64,000 nt of DNA from Escherichia coli (GTDB taxonomy: Bacteria > Pseudomonadota > Gammaproteobacteria > Enterobacterales > Enterobacteriaceae), in NCBI RefSeq assembly GCF_024502345.1, contig NZ_JALDNN010000001.1; one strand, 5' to 3'. The notes beneath the pieces are model-generated. The model was not told the origin of the DNA, ran no database searches, and worked only from the letters and a program-made list of their open reading frames with translations. Of the stretch, positions 4,054 through 57,193 are shown piece by piece; position 1 is the stretch's first letter; each line of letters starts with the position of its first letter. The translations under genes and the position numbers were made by a program.

Positions 4054-5110
4054 GGCTTTGTTGAATAAATCGAACTTTTGCTGAGTTGAAGGATCAGATC
4101 ACGTATCTTCCCGACAACGCAGACCGTTCCGTGGCAAAGCAAAAGTTCAAAATCACCAACTGGCCCACCTACAATAAAGCCCTCATCAACCGTGGCTCCA
4201 TAACTTTCTGGCTGGATGATGAAGCTATTCAGGCCTGGTATGAGTCAGCAACACCTTCTTCACGAGGCAGACCTCAGCGCTATTCTGACCTTGCCATCAC
4301 GACTGTGCTGGTCATTAAACGCGTATTCAGGCTGACCCTGCGCGCTGCGCAGGGCTTTATTGATTCCATTTTTTCTCTGATGAACGTTCCGCTACGCTGC
4401 CCGGATTACAGCTGTGTCAGCAGGCGGGCAAAGTCGGTTAATGTCAGTTTCAAAACGCCCACCCGGGGTGAAATCGCACACCTGGTAATTGATTCCACCG
4501 GGCTGAAGGTCTTCGGTGAAGGCGAGTGGAAAGTCAAAAAGCATGGCCAGGAACGCCGCCGTATCTGGCGTAAGCTGCATCTCGCCGTTGACAGTAAAAC
4601 ACATGAAATCATCTGCGCTGACCTGTCGCTGAACAACGTTACGGACTCAGAGGCCTTCCCCGGGTTAATCCGGCAAACCCACCGGAAAATCAGGTCAGCC
4701 GCCGCCGATGGCGCTTACGATACCCGGCTATGTCACGATGAACTGCGGCGTAAGAAAATCAGCGCGCTTATCCCTCCCCGAAAAGGTGCGGGTTACTGGC
4801 CCGGTGAATATGCAGACCGTAACCGTGCAGTGGCTAATCAGCGAATGACCGGGAGTAATGCGCGGTGGAAATGGACAACAGATTACAACCGTCGCTCGAT
4901 AGCGGAAACGGCGATGTACCGGGTAAAACAGCTGTTCGGGGGTTCACTGACACTGCGTGACTACGATGGTCAGGTTGCAGAGGCTATGGCCCTGGTACGA
5001 GCGCTGAACAAAATGACGAAAGCAGGTATGCCTGAAAGCGTGCGTATTGCCTGAAAACACAACCCGCTACGGGGGAGACTTACCCGAAATCTGATTTATT
5101 CAACAAAGCC
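4054..5110 (+). mobile_element. IS903-family (IS5 superfamily) insertion sequence, 1057 bp, copy 1
   Basis: 18-bp terminal inverted repeats GGCTTTGTTGAATAAATC at both ends; 1057-bp length matches IS903; identical second copy at 52638..53694; no 9-bp target-site duplication. Confidence 0.85.
4131..5054 (+). CDS. IS903-family DDE transposase (307 aa from GTG; the ORF track extends to 4086)
   Basis: ORF fills the IS; IS5-family transposase-like sequence (…NWPTYNKALINRGSITFWLDDEAIQAWY…); GTG start inferred from the 307-aa IS903 transposase length. Confidence 0.8.
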   Translation: MAKQKFKITNWPTYNKALINRGSITFWLDDEAIQAWYESATPSSRGRPQRYSDLAITTVLVIKRVFRLTLRAAQGFIDSIFSLMNVPLRCPDYSCVSRRAKSVNVSFKTPTRGEIAHLVIDSTGLKVFGEGEWKVKKHGQERRRIWRKLHLAVDSKTHEIICADLSLNNVTDSEAFPGLIRQTHRKIRSAAADGAYDTRLCHDELRRKKISALIPPRKGAGYWPGEYADRNRAVANQRMTGSNARWKWTTDYNRRSIAETAMYRVKQLFGGSLTLRDYDGQVAEAMALVRALNKMTKAGMPESVRIA

Positions 5111-15306: not shown

Positions 15307-15650
15307 CAAGATCTTCTCATACTCTCCAGGTTTACAACATTATCCTTAATATTTACTTCTTTTTGCTGGCATCTACATTGAAATGAGTAGAAAACATCCC
15401 CCTACTGTCGTCTATACAAACAGCTTACTGATTCAAAGGGAATCTTGTTTTCACATTTTTCTATCATGAATACTTTATACGCGCGGGAGTCTATAAATGC
15501 TTTATACTTTCAAGGAATAACGCAAATATAAAAAGATGGCGTAAAGTATATGCATGGCAGGATGTTTGCAACCTCCTTCATGACGCTGCCCCATTGAAAT
15601 TGCAAACCCCGCCCTGGTTATCTTGCCCATTTATCATGCAAAACAGATAA

Positions 15651-16460
15651 TTATAGGCCTCTGAATACCTCAGAAAGATTGAATTTTTTATAGTCCCTCT
15701 CTTGAATATTTCCATTTGAAATCAATCGATTCATCTCTTCAACAAAATAATTTATATCATCACACTTGTTATTATCCGGAAGATCTGAGTAGTTATAATT
15801 CCACCATTTTATTCTCAACAGTTCATCAATAACATTTGAATCAAACCTAAATCTGATTATTTTTGCAGGAACTCCTGCAACTATGGCATATGGGGGCACA
15901 TCTTTGGTAACAACGGAATTGGCAGCAATAACAGCACCATCACCTATTGTGATGCCACCTTTCAATACAACATCATTTCCTATCCAGACATCATTTCCTA
16001 TAATCGGATTTTCAGGTTTTGTAATGAATGGTTTCAATGTCCAGCTACGTTCAAACTCACTCATAGCAAACTTATCAAATTCACCGTTATAAGTCATCAT
16101 GTGAGTAGTAAAACGATTCAAAGAATGATTTCCACCCATTATTTTTACATTTGATGCAATACTACAAAATCGACCTATACGTATATTCCCTGAAAAATGA
16201 CAGGTCGGAAATGAAAAAGCGCCGACACTGGAGAAATTTTTTACAGGCATTGTTGAATATTCTTCAGCAATAACATTATCTTCAATTGTTATCTTGTCAC
16301 CTTTTGAGAAAAGAAATAAATTCCTTTCTTTATACGACTTCTTCCCCTTATGATTTAAAAAGATTTTATTATCCATACAAAACTCAAAGTGTTTTTTCGT
16401 CCATCTGAAGGTAAGGGGTTTATTTTTATCTTCCGTGAATTTGTACAATTGAACTTTCAT
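15651..16460 (-). CDS. Hexapeptide-repeat (left-handed beta-helix) acetyltransferase, Vat/CatB-like xenobiotic acetyltransferase family, with N- and C-terminal extensions
   Basis: 269-aa ORF; motif …IIGNDVWIGNDVVLKGGITIGDGAVIAANSVVTKDVPPYAIVAGVPAKIIRFRF… typical of streptogramin/chloramphenicol acetyltransferases; gene and flanks are markedly AT-rich relative to neighbours. Confidence 0.75.
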   Translation of the reverse strand: MKVQLYKFTEDKNKPLTFRWTKKHFEFCMDNKIFLNHKGKKSYKERNLFLFSKGDKITIEDNVIAEEYSTMPVKNFSSVGAFSFPTCHFSGNIRIGRFCSIASNVKIMGGNHSLNRFTTHMMTYNGEFDKFAMSEFERSWTLKPFITKPENPIIGNDVWIGNDVVLKGGITIGDGAVIAANSVVTKDVPPYAIVAGVPAKIIRFRFDSNVIDELLRIKWWNYNYSDLPDNNKCDDINYFVEEMNRLISNGNIQERDYKKFNLSEVFRGL

Positions 16461-16669
16461 TGTTAATACTTCTACTTATAAAGTATTAGTTTAATAACGA
16501 TACTCTAAAGCCTTATGCTAATCAACTGTGACAGGATGAAAAATCGCCATCAAACATTTAGCCTAATTTTTACGCTAGTTATTAATGTAATCATTCTAAT
16601 ACTTAACCGCCATTAAACTCAGAACCGAAAACGATAGTGGCCGTCCTATAACAGCCACTAACATCTAAC

Positions 16670-27591: not shown

Positions 27592-28764
27592 ATGCGTCTG
27601 TTTTCTGTTCCTCCACCCACGCTACTGGCGGGGTTTCTGGCGGTATTAATTGGCTACGCCAGTTCAGCGGCAATAATCTGGCAAGCAGCGATTGTCGCCG
27701 GAGCCTCCACTGCACAAATCTCTGGCTGGATGACGGCGCTGGGGCTGGCAATGGGCGTCAGTACGCTGACTCTGACATTATGGTATCGCGTACCTGTTCT
27801 CACCGCATGGTCAACGCCTGGCGCGGCTTTGTTGGTCACCGGATTGCAGGGACTAACACTTAACGAAGCCATCGGCGTTTTTATTGTCACCAACGCGTTA
27901 ATAGTCCTCTGCGGCATAACGGGACTCTTTGCTCGTCTGATGCGCATTATTCCGCACTCGCTTGCGGCGGCAATGCTTGCCGGGATTTTATTACGCTTTG
28001 GTTTACAGGCGTTTGCCAGTCTGGACGGTCAATTTACGTTGTGTGGAAGTATGTTGCTGGTATGGCTGGCAACCAAGGCCGTTGCGCCGCGCTATGCGGT
28101 AATTGCCGCGATGATTATTGGGATCGTGATCGTTATCGCGCAAGGTGACGTTGTCACAACTGATGTTGTCTTTAAACCCGTTCTCCCCACTTATATTACC
28201 CCTGATTTTTCGTTTGCTCACAGCCTGAGCGTTGCACTCCCCCTTTTTCTGGTGACGATGGCATCGCAAAACGCACCGGGTATCGCAGCAATGAAAGCAG
28301 CCGGATATTCGGCTCCTGTTTCGCCATTAATTGTATTTACTGGATTGCTGGCACTGGTTTTTTCCCCTTTCGGCGTTTATTCCGTCGGTATTGCGGCAAT
28401 CACCGCGGCTATTTGCCAAAGCCCGGAAGCGCATCCGGATAAAGATCAACGTTGGCTGGCAGCTGCCGTTGCAGGCATTTTCTATTTGCTCGCAGGTCTG
28501 TTTGGTAGTGCCATTACCGGGATGATGGCTGCCCTGCCCGTAAGTTGGATCCAGATGCTGGCAGGTCTGGCGCTGTTGAGTACCATTGGCGGCAGTTTGT
28601 ATCAGGCGCTGCATAATGAGCGTGAGCGCGACGCGGCGGTGGTGGCATTTCTGGTAACGGCAAGTGGATTGACGCTGGTCGGGATTGGTTCTGCGTTTTG
28701 GGGATTAATTGCCGGAGGTGTTTGTTACGTGGTGTTGAATTTAATCGCTGACAGAAACCGATAA
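27592..28764 (+). CDS. ydcO: BenE-family membrane transporter
   Basis: Hydrophobic multi-pass ORF; start taken at MRLFSVPP (the upstream extension overlaps the sutR promoter). Confidence 0.8.
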   Translation: MRLFSVPPPTLLAGFLAVLIGYASSAAIIWQAAIVAGASTAQISGWMTALGLAMGVSTLTLTLWYRVPVLTAWSTPGAALLVTGLQGLTLNEAIGVFIVTNALIVLCGITGLFARLMRIIPHSLAAAMLAGILLRFGLQAFASLDGQFTLCGSMLLVWLATKAVAPRYAVIAAMIIGIVIVIAQGDVVTTDVVFKPVLPTYITPDFSFAHSLSVALPLFLVTMASQNAPGIAAMKAAGYSAPVSPLIVFTGLLALVFSPFGVYSVGIAAITAAICQSPEAHPDKDQRWLAAAVAGIFYLLAGLFGSAITGMMAALPVSWIQMLAGLALLSTIGGSLYQALHNERERDAAVVAFLVTASGLTLVGIGSAFWGLIAGGVCYVVLNLIADRNR

Positions 28765-39455: not shown

Positions 39456-39734
39456 TACCGTTGTCTCTCGTCCAGGTTTACTCCTGATAGAAAGTCATCG
39501 GCACTTGACGGTAATTACTTATGACCAAAAACCTCTTTGCGTCACATTTTTACAACAATTATTGCAGAGAAAATTAATGCTATTGGAATGAAGAGAGTAA
39601 CGAATGGCTAAACTGGCTAACCCGAATGACGAAAAATTCTGGAAAACAGCACGCAATTTCGTGAAGTGATTATTTTCGTCCCTAAGGAAACCTCATAGGA
39701 TGCCTGCGGGTGCCTGAGACTTTCTGTTTTCAGG

Positions 39735-39794
39735 CTAACCGGGAATCAGAAAGACGAAGGCCCCGACCGATATTTCTATCAACCGAGGCCAACG

Positions 39795-39805
<11 letters not shown>
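39735..39805 (-). ncRNA. sokB: Putative SokB antisense RNA (position approximate)
   Basis: By analogy with hok/sok loci, the antisense RNA overlaps the mok translation-initiation region; boundaries not determined from sequence. Confidence 0.3.
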
Positions 39806-40003
<198 letters not shown>

Positions 40004-40418: not shown

Positions 40419-40482
40419 CTTCCGATGTAGACCCGTATTCTTCGCCTGTACCACGGGTCGGTTTTAGTACAGGCGTTTTCTT
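40419..40482 (+). ncRNA. rydC: RydC small RNA (64 nt)
   Basis: CTTCCGATGTAGACCCGTATTCTTCGCCTGTACCACGGGTCGGTTTTAGTACAGGCGTTTTCTT matches recalled RydC; TATAAT -10 at 40406-40411; intrinsic terminator at 3' end. Confidence 0.7.
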
Positions 40483-40492
40483 TAAATATTCT

Positions 40493-41023
40493 TCAGGAAC
40501 GTTTACGCGGCATCATGCGTAGAAGTGTGTTGTCCTTCCAGAAATAGTGGTGTGCCAGTGCAGCCGCAGCGTGCAAACCGATGACAAAATATCCCAGATT
40601 CGCCAGCGTTTCATGCCACGACTTTAAGCTATCTACCCGTTCGAAATTGGCCTCTGAAGCGTAAGGCATCGTCAAACCAAACGCAAACCACGGGTTGCCC
40701 CGGTTATACATCATCACCAAACCAATCACTGGCAGCGCAATAAACAGGAGATAAATCACCAAATGTCCCAAATGCGCCAGTCCCGTCATCATCGGTTTCG
40801 GCTTAGGTATAATCGGCGGGGTTGGGTATTTCAGTCTTAACAAAAGACGAACCACCATCAGCACGAGAATTGAGATGCCACAGGAAACATGAATCATGTT
40901 GATGAGCGGCCGTTCGCTACGTGGGAAGAAACCACGAAACTCCATTGCGCAATACGCTGCGATAACCAGCAAAAAGACCAGCCAGTGAATGCCGATTTGT
41001 AACCTTGAGTATTTATTTTCCAT
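40493..41023 (-). CDS. cybB: Cytochrome b561
   Basis: Membrane di-heme cytochrome ORF; start taken at MENKYSRLQIGIHW (176 aa). Confidence 0.85.
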   Translation of the reverse strand: MENKYSRLQIGIHWLVFLLVIAAYCAMEFRGFFPRSERPLINMIHVSCGISILVLMVVRLLLRLKYPTPPIIPKPKPMMTGLAHLGHLVIYLLFIALPVIGLVMMYNRGNPWFAFGLTMPYASEANFERVDSLKSWHETLANLGYFVIGLHAAAALAHHYFWKDNTLLRMMPRKRS

Positions 41024-41211
41024 AACATTTCCTGCTTCAACATAATTTTCCGTTAACATAACGGGCTTTTCTCAAAATTTCATTAAATATTGTTCACCCG
41101 TTTTCAGTACGTTACGTTTCACTGTAAGAATGGAGATTGCCCATCCCACAATCCTGGTCTAAGCCTGGAAAGGATCAATTTTCATCCGAACGTTCCTGAC
41201 AGGAGAAAACC

Positions 41212-42213
41212 ATGAGTAAAGTTGGTATTAACGGTTTTGGTCGTATCGGTCGACTGGTGTTGCGTCGATTACTTGAAGTCAAAAGCAACATAGACGTTGT
41301 CGCTATTAATGATCTCACTTCTCCAAAAATTCTCGCCTACCTGCTCAAACATGATTCAAACTACGGACCGTTCCCCTGGAGCGTTGATTTTACGGAAGAT
41401 TCACTTATCGTTGATGGGAAAAGTATCGCGATTTACGCCGAAAAAGAGGCTAAAAATATTCCGTGGAAAGCGAAAGGGGCAGAAATCATTGTCGAATGTA
41501 CTGGCTTTTATACCTCCGCCGATAAATCGCAGGCGCATCTTGATGCTGGTGCGAAGAAGGTGTTGATTTCCGCTCCTGCCGGTGAAATGAAAACTATCGT
41601 TTATAACGTCAATGACGACACTCTGGATGGCAACGACACCATTGTTTCCGTGGCGTCATGCACCACTAACTGTCTTGCGCCGATGGCCAAAGCCTTGCAT
41701 GACAGTTTCGGGATAGAAGTCGGCACGATGACGACCATTCATGCCTATACTGGCACCCAGTCACTGGTGGATGGCCCACGTGGTAAAGATTTACGTGCTT
41801 CACGCGCAGCGGCAGAAAATATCATTCCCCACACTACGGGGGCGGCAAAAGCCATTGGTCTGGTGATCCCGGAACTGAGCGGCAAACTGAAAGGTCATGC
41901 GCAACGCGTGCCGGTGAAAACAGGTTCGGTCACTGAACTGGTATCGATTCTCGGAAAAAAAGTGACTGCCGAAGAGGTGAATAACGCACTTAAACAAGCA
42001 ACCACCAATAACGAGTCATTTGGTTATACCGATGAAGAAATAGTCTCTTCCGATATCATTGGCAGCCATTTCGGTTCAGTGTTTGATGCCACGCAAACGG
42101 AAATTACCGCCGTGGGCGATTTACAACTGGTGAAAACGGTCGCCTGGTACGATAACGAATATGGCTTCGTCACGCAGCTTATTCGCACCCTCGAAAAATT
42201 CGCTAAACTCTGA
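41212..42213 (+). CDS. gapC: Glyceraldehyde-3-phosphate dehydrogenase C (intact here)
   Basis: 333-aa uninterrupted ORF with NAD-binding GFGRIGR and catalytic SCTTNCL. Confidence 0.9.
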
Positions 42214-42221
42214 CGCGCACA

Positions 42222-42250
42222 GGCGGAGGGAAAAAACCTCCGCCTCTTTC
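42222..42250. terminator. Bidirectional rho-independent terminator between gapC and aldA
   Basis: GGCGGAGG/CCTCCGCC stem, A-rich loop, T-tract on plus strand. Confidence 0.6.
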
Positions 42251-42255
42251 ACTCA

Positions 42256-43695
42256 TTAAGACTGTAAATAAACCACCTGGGTCTGCAGATATTCATGCAG
42301 GCCATGTTTACCATCTGCGCCGCCAATACCGGATTTACGCCATCCGGCGTGGAAGCCTTGCATAGCTTCGAAGTTTTCACGGTTGATGTAAGTTTCACCA
42401 AACTTCAGCCCTTTAATGGCTTTCATCGCGACGTTCAGATTTTGGGTATAGATTGATGAGGTCAGGCCGTAATCACTGTCATTAGCCATTGAGATAGCAT
42501 CTTCCAGCGTGTCAAATGCGACTACCGGCAGAACCGGGCCAAAGGTTTCCTCATGCATAATCGACATTTCCTGGCGAACATCCAGCAGCAATGTCGGCGG
42601 ATAATAATATCCTTTCCCCTCTACCGCTTTGCCACCCAACGCCACTCTCGCCCCTTCTTCTACTGCGCGCGCCACTTTTTGCTCGACCCTTTCCAGCGCC
42701 GCGGCGTTAATCAACGGCCCCATCGCAATGTCGTTGCGTTCAGCGGGGTTACCAAATTGAACCGCCTGCATCGCTTCACCCAGCCGATTGACGAACTGAT
42801 CATAAATGCCTTTCTGTACATAAACACGTTCTGCACAGTTACACACTTGCCCACTATTAATGACGCGTGAATCAACGATGGCTTTGACTGCCAGTTCAAG
42901 ATCGGCATCGTCCATTACGATAGCTGGTGCTTTACCCCCCAATTCCAGACACACTTTGGTGATGTTTTTCGCCGCAGTCGCCATGATCTTCTCACCTGCA
43001 GAGACGCTGCCTGTCATACTGACCATTGTGACCTTTGGGTTACCCGCCAGTTCTTGCCCAACGGTTTCACCACGCCCCAGTACAAGGTTAAACACGCCGC
43101 GCGGAAGGCCTATTTCATCGACGATTTTGGCGAATGCAATCGCATTGTTTGGCGTAAATTCACTAGGTTTAATGACGATGGTATTACCGGTCAAAAGAGC
43201 GGGAGCCATTTTGCGGGCAATGAGGAAGAACGGGAAGTTCCACGGCAGAATGCCGGTAGTCACACCAAGCGCACGTTTAAACAAAAGAATATTTTCTCCT
43301 GGACGATCGCTTTGAATAATCTCGCCCTCGTAACGCCGTGCCCACTCCGCCATGTAATCGATATAGTCGGCAGTAAAAGCCACTTCGACTTCAGCCAGCT
43401 GCTGGATCTTGCCCCCTTCTTCAACAATCAGCGCACTGATTTCACTGGCGCGTTCGCGGATCCCGGCGGAGATTTTGCGCAACCAACTGGCGCGTTCAAT
43501 AGCAGGCAACGCTTCCCATTCTGGTTGTGCACGTTCTGCTGCATCGATTGCCTTACGGGCATCCTCGGCCTGACCATCGGGTATGCGGGAAATGACAGCC
43601 TCTGTAGCAGGGTTTACCACATCAATCCATGCGTCTCCACGCCAGGTAACAAACTGTCCATCGATATACATAGGATGTTGAACGGGTACTGACAT
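42256..43695 (-). CDS. aldA: Lactaldehyde dehydrogenase
   Basis: 479-aa ALDH ORF. Confidence 0.95.
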   Translation of the reverse strand: MSVPVQHPMYIDGQFVTWRGDAWIDVVNPATEAVISRIPDGQAEDARKAIDAAERAQPEWEALPAIERASWLRKISAGIRERASEISALIVEEGGKIQQLAEVEVAFTADYIDYMAEWARRYEGEIIQSDRPGENILLFKRALGVTTGILPWNFPFFLIARKMAPALLTGNTIVIKPSEFTPNNAIAFAKIVDEIGLPRGVFNLVLGRGETVGQELAGNPKVTMVSMTGSVSAGEKIMATAAKNITKVCLELGGKAPAIVMDDADLELAVKAIVDSRVINSGQVCNCAERVYVQKGIYDQFVNRLGEAMQAVQFGNPAERNDIAMGPLINAAALERVEQKVARAVEEGARVALGGKAVEGKGYYYPPTLLLDVRQEMSIMHEETFGPVLPVVAFDTLEDAISMANDSDYGLTSSIYTQNLNVAMKAIKGLKFGETYINRENFEAMQGFHAGWRKSGIGGADGKHGLHEYLQTQVVYLQS

Positions 43696-52637: not shown

Positions 52638-53694
52638 GGCTTTGTTGAATAAATCGAACTTTTGCTGAGTTGAAGGATCAGATCACGTATCTTCCCGACA
52701 ACGCAGACCGTTCCGTGGCAAAGCAAAAGTTCAAAATCACCAACTGGCCCACCTACAATAAAGCCCTCATCAACCGTGGCTCCATAACTTTCTGGCTGGA
52801 TGATGAAGCTATTCAGGCCTGGTATGAGTCAGCAACACCTTCTTCACGAGGCAGACCTCAGCGCTATTCTGACCTTGCCATCACGACTGTGCTGGTCATT
52901 AAACGCGTATTCAGGCTGACCCTGCGCGCTGCGCAGGGCTTTATTGATTCCATTTTTTCTCTGATGAACGTTCCGCTACGCTGCCCGGATTACAGCTGTG
53001 TCAGCAGGCGGGCAAAGTCGGTTAATGTCAGTTTCAAAACGCCCACCCGGGGTGAAATCGCACACCTGGTAATTGATTCCACCGGGCTGAAGGTCTTCGG
53101 TGAAGGCGAGTGGAAAGTCAAAAAGCATGGCCAGGAACGCCGCCGTATCTGGCGTAAGCTGCATCTCGCCGTTGACAGTAAAACACATGAAATCATCTGC
53201 GCTGACCTGTCGCTGAACAACGTTACGGACTCAGAGGCCTTCCCCGGGTTAATCCGGCAAACCCACCGGAAAATCAGGTCAGCCGCCGCCGATGGCGCTT
53301 ACGATACCCGGCTATGTCACGATGAACTGCGGCGTAAGAAAATCAGCGCGCTTATCCCTCCCCGAAAAGGTGCGGGTTACTGGCCCGGTGAATATGCAGA
53401 CCGTAACCGTGCAGTGGCTAATCAGCGAATGACCGGGAGTAATGCGCGGTGGAAATGGACAACAGATTACAACCGTCGCTCGATAGCGGAAACGGCGATG
53501 TACCGGGTAAAACAGCTGTTCGGGGGTTCACTGACACTGCGTGACTACGATGGTCAGGTTGCAGAGGCTATGGCCCTGGTACGAGCGCTGAACAAAATGA
53601 CGAAAGCAGGTATGCCTGAAAGCGTGCGTATTGCCTGAAAACACAACCCGCTACGGGGGAGACTTACCCGAAATCTGATTTATTCAACAAAGCC
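52638..53694 (+). mobile_element. IS903-family insertion sequence, 1057 bp, copy 2 (identical to copy 1, same orientation)
   Basis: Same 18-bp terminal inverted repeats; the encoded ORFs are identical to copy 1; no target-site duplication. Confidence 0.85.
52715..53638 (+). CDS. IS903-family DDE transposase
   Basis: Identical to the transposase ORF at 4131..5054. Confidence 0.8.
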   Translation: MAKQKFKITNWPTYNKALINRGSITFWLDDEAIQAWYESATPSSRGRPQRYSDLAITTVLVIKRVFRLTLRAAQGFIDSIFSLMNVPLRCPDYSCVSRRAKSVNVSFKTPTRGEIAHLVIDSTGLKVFGEGEWKVKKHGQERRRIWRKLHLAVDSKTHEIICADLSLNNVTDSEAFPGLIRQTHRKIRSAAADGAYDTRLCHDELRRKKISALIPPRKGAGYWPGEYADRNRAVANQRMTGSNARWKWTTDYNRRSIAETAMYRVKQLFGGSLTLRDYDGQVAEAMALVRALNKMTKAGMPESVRIA

Positions 53695-54038
53695 GAGTGA
53701 TGCGTTACTTTCCGGTAAAAATAAAAAGGTAAATAGAGCGCAATATCGGAAATAACATCGCCAGTTTCATTCAAAATCGCCCCCAGACGTGTTTGCTGAT
53801 TGCACTCACGCGCCAACATGCCATCCAGCGCATTGAGCGCCATACGGATAAAAAGCACGATGGGCAATAGCAAAAAGAGGATGGGTTGTGCCACCAACAC
53901 CAACAGCAATCCGGTAAAAAGAGAAAGCGCCAGTGCCGTAAGAGTGATGTGATTCGCTGTAACGTGGTGCTTATAAAGCCAAAACATCGTCGGCCTTAAC
54001 AGCGACTGAAAGAGCGGTTTTATCTGGTAGAGCGTCAT
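53695..54038 (-). pseudogene. ynbA: CDP-alcohol phosphatidyltransferase-family protein YnbA, 3'-truncated by the IS element (about 114 codons retained)
   Basis: ORF begins MTLYQIKPLFQSLL… and continues into the IS right end. Confidence 0.65.
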
Positions 54039-54287
54039 TTATCATTCCGTGATATTCAGTTTGCTCTATGGTGCATCAATTGTGATGGCGGAGATATCAC
54101 AACGCGGAGCATCAACGTAAATTCGGAATATATCAAGATGTGGTGGATGGTTTTCCTACACATCTGTTTGATTACCGACTGGATGTCAGTGAGATACCAT
54201 CGATCACTGTACGAATCAATGAATCCATTGCCTTTTCCCTGATTATCCAGCCGCAAATCCTGGCCTTAAACATATGCACTCCATGCC

Positions 54288-55383: not shown

Positions 55384-55425
55384 AGGTATCACATGCTAAA
55401 AATTAGAATGTTCAGTATCTGGACG

Positions 55426-56016
55426 TTACTGTTTCGGTCGCAGATTCTCATCAAATACCAGACGTTTCCTGTTCGGTTCAACTTCCCGCAATGGCTCAAC
55501 TTGATGCAACGTCTGCTTACAACGAGTCACCAGCACCTGATACTCATGCGTACCCTGCTTTTTCCATGCCAGCTCCTGCTCACTGAGTTCACGAATCGCT
55601 TTCGCCGGGCTGCCGACAATCAGGTAATTGGCAGGCATTTCTGCTTTGGCTTTCACAAATGCGGATGCGCCAACAATGCTGTTCTCGCCAATCACCGCGC
55701 CGTCCATCACTACCGCGTTCATTCCCACTAATGCATTGCGGCGGATAATGCAACCATGAAGGATAGCGCTATGACCAATATGCCCATCTTCTTCCACGAC
55801 AGTATCCTGTTCGGGAAAACCGTGCATAACGCAATTATCCTGAATGTTCGCGCCATCTTTCACTACGATACGACCAAAATCGCCACGCAGATTGGCATTT
55901 GGCCCAACGTAAACGCCCTTGCCGAGAATAACATCGCCGATCAATACCGCTGTCGGATGGACAAAACTCTCTTCTGGCACAACCGGAGTCAGACCATCTA
56001 TCTGGTAAATTGGCAT
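55426..56016 (-). CDS. paaY: Hexapeptide-repeat thioesterase PaaY
   Basis: 196-aa left-handed beta-helix ORF; position downstream of the paaX remnant. Confidence 0.85.
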
Positions 56017-56555
56017 AACGCCTCCTGTTCAATATTCAAACCGCCAAAACGTTGAAAATACAGGCTTCCCGGCGCAGGCAGTTCACCGACCGAGGTTTCA
56101 CCTTTTTCACTAACGAACGCTAAAGCAGCAGGCGCTACGCGCTGATAAATGTTGATACACAGCTGACGCGCCGTATGCCCTGCCCAGTGCGCCGGAAGCA
56201 ACTCCTCTGGCAACAATGGGTCTTTAAGGACGACACGGCGATAAAAATGGATCAGTAAAAGCTGAATATGAAATGCACGCTCCGGGGTTAACTCGTCTGC
56301 TGCCTCTTTTAACAGCGGCACCAGCGGGCGGAATGACTGAATAAAGGTTTCGTACATGGCATTTTGTTCAGTTAAATGCCAGCACTCTTCCACTCTGGCA
56401 CGCAGTGCTGCACGAGAAAGCGCCAGTGGTATTTGCGCTTCAAAACAAATCACGTTATCCGCCAGAAGGGCATTATTTAGCGCATTACGTGCGGCGGGAC
56501 GGTTAAGGGTCAGCAACAATACTTGTTGCTGACGGCTGACGATCAGTTCGCTCAT
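55998..56555 (-). pseudogene. In-frame fusion remnant: first ~31 codons of enoyl-CoA hydratase PaaF joined to the C-terminal ~154 codons of repressor PaaX
   Basis: N-terminus MSELIVSRQQQVLLLTLNRPAARNALNNALL is a crotonase-type start, but the remainder lacks crotonase features and sits where the paaX 3' end should be; junction near 56462. Confidence 0.6.
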
Positions 56556-57193
56556 GCCATCCCCTTCGCGTCAAAGTCAACCACCACATCGCTGGTCAGC
56601 GGCAGTGCCTGGCAACTCAACACATAGCCTGCGGCCAGTTCATCCGGTTCCAGACTGTAATTGGTTTCCATCGCCACTTTGCCACGCAGCACTTTGCATT
56701 TGCAGGTCGCACAGACGCCGCCTTTGCAGGCATAGGGCAGATCAGCCCCCTGGCGCAATGCCGCATCGAGAATGCTTTCATCGTCGGCATTAAGCACGAT
56801 TTCCCGATCCCGCCCATCCTGACGTACAGTCACTTTTTGTCCGTCACTTTGCACGTTAACGCTACGTTTGACGCGCGTGCCAGGCGTATTAAACCGCTCC
56901 AGATGAATGGTTTTATCTGGCATTCCCAGTGCTTTTAAGGCGGCTTCCGTCTCATCCATCATCGCCGCCGGACCACAAATAAATGCCTCATCATAAAGAC
57001 GAAAATTAATGAGCGAGGCCCCAAGTGACTGTAATTTTTCACCGTCAATACGCCCGTGAAGCAGATCGCTGTCGAGGGTTTCCTGACTGAAAATGCACAA
57101 CAACTGTAAACGCTGAGGATATTTGTCTTTCAGGTCTGCCAGTGCCTGGCGAAACATCATGCTCTGGCTGGTACGGTTACCGTAGATCAGGGT
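56552..57193 (-). pseudogene. paaE: 3' fragment of paaE (ferredoxin-NADPH reductase subunit; 2Fe-2S C-terminal domain retained, N-terminal FAD domain deleted)
   Basis: CKGGVCATCKCKVL 2Fe-2S motif; the frame extends upstream of the listed Met to about 57193, where homology ends. Confidence 0.65.

Follow-up and report, generated by a model that had tools for sequence, protein, structure and literature searches.

Whether gapC of Escherichia coli encodes a working second glyceraldehyde-3-phosphate dehydrogenase (GAPDH), and which of its intact and broken forms is the usual one in the species, is the question raised by the locus described here. We analyzed the gene within a 64,000-nt stretch of the E. 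coli contig NZ_JALDNN010000001.1 (assembly GCF_024502345.1), which we call the window. There, gapC is a single unbroken open reading frame (ORF) running from an ATG start through 333 codons to a TGA stop, and the ORF list of the window has no in-frame start further 5’ of this ATG (Table 1). By chance, a frame of this length would stay open with a probability of (61/64)^333, about 1e-7. The product matches the TIGR01534 model of type I GAPDH with 446.2 bits against a curated cut-off of 367.2 (E-value 7e-134), its residues 3-325 lie on model positions 1-330, and the translation stays colinear with that model along its whole length. The two Pfam domains, Gp_dh_N (PF00044, 122 bits) and Gp_dh_C (PF02800, 195 bits), are both present at about full length. 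The GxGxxG of the NAD site is accompanied by Asp34, the catalytic Cys150 lies within SCTTNC, His177 is in place, and the phosphate-site residues Ser120, Asn315, Thr180, Thr182, Thr209, Gly210 and Arg232 were all found (roles according to PMC8615399). A sequence-only reading had described a complete 333-aa GAPDH frame with an NAD-binding motif and a catalytic cysteine, and each of these elements was recovered. The gene lies between cybB (40493-41059, minus strand) and aldA (42256-43695, minus strand) in the same order as in K-12, and this location together with its near-identity to annotated gapC alleles identifies it as the gapC orthologue; RefSeq labels the identical protein sequence ‘gap’ (WP_038340197.1). 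Two further ORFs inside the gene, at 41297-41566 (plus strand) and 41800-41997 (minus strand), were rejected as shadow frames, the gene being strongly conserved.

Table 1 Features of the gapC locus, in window coordinates
Feature	Position	Strand	Basis
cybB-gapC divergent intergenic region, presumed gapC promoter region	41060..41211	+	conservation; K-12 ChIP-seq
Shine-Dalgarno AGGAG, 6-nt spacer to the gapC ATG	41201..41205	+	direct sequence reading; presumed function
gapC CDS, type I NAD-dependent phosphorylating GAPDH	41212..42213	+	ORF, TIGR01534, Pfam, 331/333 to 7C5F
Codons 8-13, G-F-G-R-I-G (G8 to G13), dinucleotide-binding motif	41233..41250	+	Arg11 and Ile12 contact NAD (PMC8615399)
Codon 39, AAA (Lys); TAA in K-12, first K-12 lesion	41326..41328	+	alignment
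Catalytic Cys150, TGC	41659..41661	+	sequence reading; mutants in 99.4%-identical enzyme
Catalytic His177, CAT	41740..41742	+	sequence reading; H177A in 99.4%-identical enzyme
A7 run, GG-A AAA AAA GTG, codons 248-250; A6 in K-12, second K-12 lesion	41955..41961	+	alignment
9-bp G+C-rich hairpin GGCGGAGGG/CCUCCGCC(U), probable shared terminator	42221..42245	.	RNA fold; presumed role

In K-12 MG1655, RefSeq flags gapC as a pseudogene (‘frameshifted; internal stop’), and tables for K-12 list gapC_1 and gapC_2 (b1417 and b1416) as ‘interrupted/pseudogene’ (PMC4512719, PMC4447067, PMC8003623). A global alignment of the window and K-12 genes gives 98.7% nucleotide identity, with 12 substitutions and one A that is absent from K-12. 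Two lesions inactivate the K-12 copy: the first is the substitution at window position 41326 that turns codon 39 from AAA into TAA, and the second is the loss of one base from the A7 run, after which K-12 reads GGA AAA AAG TGA and stops at codon 251. Both are absent from the window. The statement that K-12 carries gapC as a pseudogene was therefore right, and the alignment uncovered neither a hidden frameshift in the window nor an equally intact copy in K-12. The intact gene had also been proposed as a lineage marker. The part stating that this DNA is not K-12 holds, given the missing lesions, an identity to K-12 of ~98.5% over 47 kb and a different IS content; the value as a marker is weak because the intact form is the majority state (see below) and excludes only the ~20% of genomes with the K-12-type allele, without singling out any one lineage.

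The activity of the encoded enzyme is known from an almost identical protein. A PDB sequence search returned 14 entries (7C5F, 7C5H, 7C5P, 7C7K and active-site mutants) that are identical to the window GapC at 331 of 333 residues (99.4%). The 7C5F protein is by sequence WP_000048667.1 of the E. coli B lineage, and the window has Ile74 and Asp104 in place of its V74 and E104, two conservative replacements at positions other than the named active-site and NAD-contact residues. The structure paper names the enzyme ‘EcGAPDH1’ or ‘type 1 GAPDH’ and never gapC or gapA (PMC8615399), so that these structures are open to mistaken reading as GapA; by sequence they are GapC. The resulting link between 7C5F and GapC, drawn from sequence identity, should serve as a useful cross-reference and is not new. 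EcGAPDH1 is NAD-dependent, with a KM of 0.73 mM for glyceraldehyde-3-phosphate (G3P) and a kcat of ~2.2e5 per minute under the assay conditions used; the C150A mutation abolished the activity, the C150S and H177A mutations decreased it about 10^4-fold (~8000-fold for H177A), and crystal complexes are available with NAD, phosphate, G3P, the thioacyl intermediate and 1,3-bisphosphoglycerate (1,3-BPG) (PMC8615399). The residues named in that paper (Arg11, Ile12, Asp34, Ser120, Ser149, Cys150, Thr151, His177, Thr180, Thr182, Thr209, Gly210, Arg232 and Asn315) are all found in the window GapC. Furthermore, according to three reviews, Chen et al. put the BL21 gapC in place of gapA and the engineered strain was viable, with the BL21 GapC having ‘only 40% of GapA activity’ (PMC8879981, PMC9214030, PMC9397406). 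The window GapC is thus evidently an active NAD-dependent GAPDH, judged from a protein that differs at two of 333 residues. The earlier suggestion of a possible second functional GAPDH is well supported by the active EcGAPDH1 and by the in vivo replacement, and the latter in effect already supplies the complementation of a gapA mutant that had been proposed as a check.

The flanks of the gene carry a strong Shine-Dalgarno sequence, a conserved upstream region and a candidate terminator. The 152-bp upstream region keeps 143-151 of its 152 positions in 14 strains that have no IS1 there. A sigma-70 consensus scan of 40950-42350 yielded one site against 2.1 expected, and nothing above chance for gapC; since this lone match lies within cybB and does not exceed chance, we claim no gapC promoter. 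For K-12, a ChIP-seq peak of sigma-S RNA polymerase lies between gapC_1 and cybB (PMC4447067), and gapC_1 has a 5.6-fold value in a published RpoS / cAMP-CRP regulator comparison table for carbon-limited cells. The gapC transcript has also been measured in Shigella flexneri in published work, and PMC1796617 credits an adaptive role in aquatic environments to Espinosa-Urgel & Kolter 1998. On the 3’ side, the hairpin between the gapC stop and the convergent aldA has a folding energy of -18.9 kcal/mol (z = -3.9), and none of 200 shuffled sequences was equally stable. It is probably a terminator shared by gapC and aldA, and was not listed by the consensus scan because its T tract is weak. In NEBExpress (E. 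coli B) and strain 100416, an IS1 located 90-170 bp 5’ of an intact gapC replaces or interrupts the cybB side of the intergenic region, which may change how gapC is expressed in E. coli B, from which the enzyme used for crystallography and strain engineering was taken. An Rfam scan of 36-46 kb detected no RNA in or adjoining gapC and only two elsewhere, both just upstream of cybB and both expected from K-12: the sok antitoxin RNA (sokB of the hokB locus; 39708-39859, plus strand, 111 bits) and the RydC sRNA (40419-40482, plus strand, 92 bits).

To place the two forms of the gene in the species, we searched 5426 complete E. coli genomes. A gapC match was found in 5417 of them and none in the other nine; at least 80% of the length was matched in 5409, with nucleotide identities to the window of 95.5-100%. 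Five matches are on plasmid-labelled records, some genomes have the gene in two places, and SCPM-O-B-7615 retains only the first 205 bases of gapC, an independent disruption. The two K-12 lesions were followed with queries so short that only an exact match reaches the identity band of at least 99%. A 66-mer with the K-12 A6 run was exact in 1046 of the 5426 genomes and a 61-mer with the TAA codon in 1152, while among the matches listed the non-exact ones to the A6 66-mer span 67 nt and have A7. The K-12 lesions thus occur in about 19-21% of complete E. coli genomes, a proportion of ~20% that probably overstates the natural frequency since K-12 derivatives are abundant among complete genomes. 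Carriers of the K-12-type allele include strains isolated from pigs, cattle, humans and river water, and their genomes reach 5.2 Mb; the allele goes beyond laboratory K-12. The share of intact alleles was estimated from a sample and not by a census: among 15 full-length matches (1002 bases) taken at even spacing from the ranking, 14 are annotated as intact, down to 95.5% nucleotide identity. Their sources are bovine (C7), E. coli B (NEBExpress), O157:H7, and urinary, blood, stream and wastewater isolates. The intact gene is thus the majority state and, by its spread over divergent alleles, most likely the ancestral one, and the K-12 pseudogene is a derived allele common to an E. coli subclade.

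An intermediate of the inactivation survives in the fifteenth of the sampled alleles, that of E. coli ET474 (NZ_CP100954.1, positions 251-1252 of the extracted locus), in which gapC has TAA at codon 39 and an unbroken A7 run. The TAA haplotype also occurs in ~100 more genomes than the A6 haplotype, and these counts (1152 against 1046) together with the ET474 allele indicate that the nonsense codon came first and the homopolymer slip second. As for the window itself, the best match of its cybB-gapC-aldA block is E. coli O18ac:H14 strain 873.10 (99.9%), followed by FDAARGOS_943/944 (99.6%). Strains 873.10 and FDAARGOS_943 carry the identical GapC protein, WP_038340197.1, and the exact protein is on 95 public contigs; the 90%-identity protein cluster of GapC also holds a 333-aa member from Citrobacter freundii.

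The intact alleles carry the signature of a constrained protein. With 14 distinct intact alleles compared in 91 pairs, pN/pS had a median of 0.039 (mean pS 0.087, mean pN 0.0036); third codon positions account for 71 of the 81 polymorphic sites, and the ten polymorphic residues include none of the catalytic ones. This pattern points to long-term purifying selection on the GapC protein across divergent lineages. The intact form, which is also the majority, is selectively maintained.

These data bear on three other accounts of the locus. The difference between K-12 and the window could have been a homopolymer-length sequencing artefact in either sequence, and one of the two K-12 lesions does fall in a homopolymer (A6/A7), where sequencing errors are classically found. 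However, the other lesion is a base substitution, AAA to TAA, and independent assemblies show each of the two states hundreds to thousands of times over: the A6 form is exact in more than a thousand, A7 is found among the other matches listed, and the window allele and its protein recur as described above for FDAARGOS_943, 873.10 and the 95 contigs. An artefact is therefore excluded for practical purposes. It is also very improbable that GapC is an enzyme of the GAPDH fold with another main job, as an erythrose-4-phosphate (E4P) dehydrogenase, an arsenate-linked enzyme or an NADP-dependent one. Models of Epd, ArsJ-associated and other GAPDH-like proteins do match GapC with strong E-values, but all of them fall far under their curated cut-offs, in contrast to TIGR01534: the Epd/GapB models give 279.8 against 539 (NF010058) and 275.4 against 530.6 (TIGR01532), and the ArsJ-associated model gives 306 against 450 (NF033735). 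No arsJ was found near gapC, its neighbours being cybB and aldA, and GapC has Asp34, an acidic residue of the type typical of NAD-specific enzymes. The enzyme with 99.4% identity uses NAD+ to turn over G3P, and crystals of it were obtained with G3P, the thioacyl intermediate and BPG. The GapA-type model (NF011954 / PRK15425) is likewise missed, with 297.8 bits against 662, and the identity to the K-12 GapA (WP_000153502.1) is 46%; on these sequence comparisons, GapC is a true paralogue of GapA and not a copy of it.

The remaining account accepts the ORF as intact and regards the gene as cryptic, either unexpressed or drifting to decay, and so making no GAPDH contribution in the cell. It could draw on the sigma-70 scan of the upstream region, on the ~20% of genomes that lost the gene by mutation with no obvious harm, and on the upstream IS1 of E. 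coli B and of strain 100416. We consider it improbable, since a pN/pS of ~0.04 with polymorphism concentrated at third positions is a sign that the protein has long been under selection, conservation extends to the upstream region, the Shine-Dalgarno sequence and terminator are intact, and a transcript and a sigma-S polymerase signal are seen even in K-12, as is a transcript in Shigella.

We are highly confident that the gene in the window is an intact chromosomal gapC allele encoding a second GAPDH, and that the K-12 pseudogene is a derived form. The gene is monocistronic, flanked by cybB and aldA, and GapC would be a homotetrameric, NAD+-dependent phosphorylating GAPDH (EC 1.2.1.12). In the expected reaction, the thiolate of Cys150 would attack C1 of G3P, as shown on the enzyme with two of 333 residues different; hydride transfer to NAD+ with the assistance of His177 would yield the thioacyl enzyme, and cleavage of the thioester by phosphate would release 1,3-BPG. 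GapC, less active than GapA, should be able to carry the glycolytic flux if GapA is absent. We infer that GapC serves as an auxiliary GAPDH, mainly in stationary-phase, carbon-limited or non-host conditions (sigma-S, cAMP-CRP) and not in fast growth, an assignment drawn from K-12 transcript data on the pseudogene and from a citing paper.

A further reading concerns the loss. The K-12-type alleles may go back to one old two-step inactivation inherited by a large natural subclade, the spread of which reflects an ecological shift and not neutral decay or laboratory domestication. We regard this as rather unlikely. If it were true, the shift could be, for example, a weaker need for GapC-dependent persistence outside the host, and the intact allele of the window would mark a retained capacity for environmental survival.

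The finding on gapC is correct, already known and ordinary: the K-12 pseudogene, the intact alleles elsewhere, the structure and activity of the enzyme and the replacement of GapA are all in the literature. It matters in that K-12 is the exception and that most E. coli have a pair of active GAPDHs, B/BL21, O157:H7 and extra-intestinal isolates among them. Metabolic models and gapA essentiality results from K-12 are therefore not automatically transferable to them, and neither is the practice of integrating DNA at the ‘gapC site’ as if it were neutral (PMC11340173). Some K-12 studies, on their part, treat gapC as an enzyme gene (PMC3080795).

The window differs from K-12 at several other places. 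The same 322-aa IS5-family transposase (NF033579, 357 bits) is encoded by ORFs at 4086-5054 and 52670-53638, both on the plus strand. The second copy sits where K-12 has ynbB/ynbA/ydbD, most of which is missing apart from a 446-bp piece at 53694-54137 (93% identity), and this suggests an IS-mediated deletion or rearrangement. Between patD and yncL there is a 1.3-kb insertion relative to K-12 (15356-16668) that contains no transposase and has an ORF at 15651-16460 (minus strand) for a 269-aa hexapeptide-repeat acetyltransferase; it resembles the Vat/CatB xenobiotic acetyltransferases but, with 127 bits against a curated cut-off of 300, scores far too low for membership. The paa (phenylacetate) operon is internally deleted at 55413-57160, where one ORF (55998-56555, minus strand) joins the N-terminus of PaaF to the C-terminus of PaaX and another (56552-57160, minus strand) corresponds to no more of PaaE than its C-terminal ~200 aa. 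Also missing is the ydbA autotransporter region, which in K-12 lies next to pdxI and is interrupted by IS2/IS30. The K-12 IS609 (an IS200/IS605 tnpA remnant with insQ/TnpB, ydcL-ydcO) is absent as well, and its flanks join cleanly at 28763/28764.

The closest known counterpart of the window GapC is the E. coli B/BL21 enzyme (EcGAPDH1, WP_000048667.1), which has the same gene, locus and catalytic and cofactor residues, so that activity, fold and tetramer are expected to be the same; the two differ by Val74 and Glu104 in the B enzyme, and E. coli B has an IS1 upstream of gapC whereas the window has none there. The K-12 pseudogene occupies the orthologous locus between cybB and aldA, and unlike the window allele it is broken by the TAA at codon 39 and by the A6 run with its downstream stop. 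The housekeeping GapA belongs to the same family and has the fold, catalytic Cys/His, NAD dependence and reaction of GapC, but is encoded at a different locus, and the activity of GapC is lower according to the cited reviews. Epd/GapB has the superfamily and overall architecture in common with GapC; Epd is non-phosphorylating and acts on E4P, whereas EcGAPDH1 yields 1,3-BPG from G3P.
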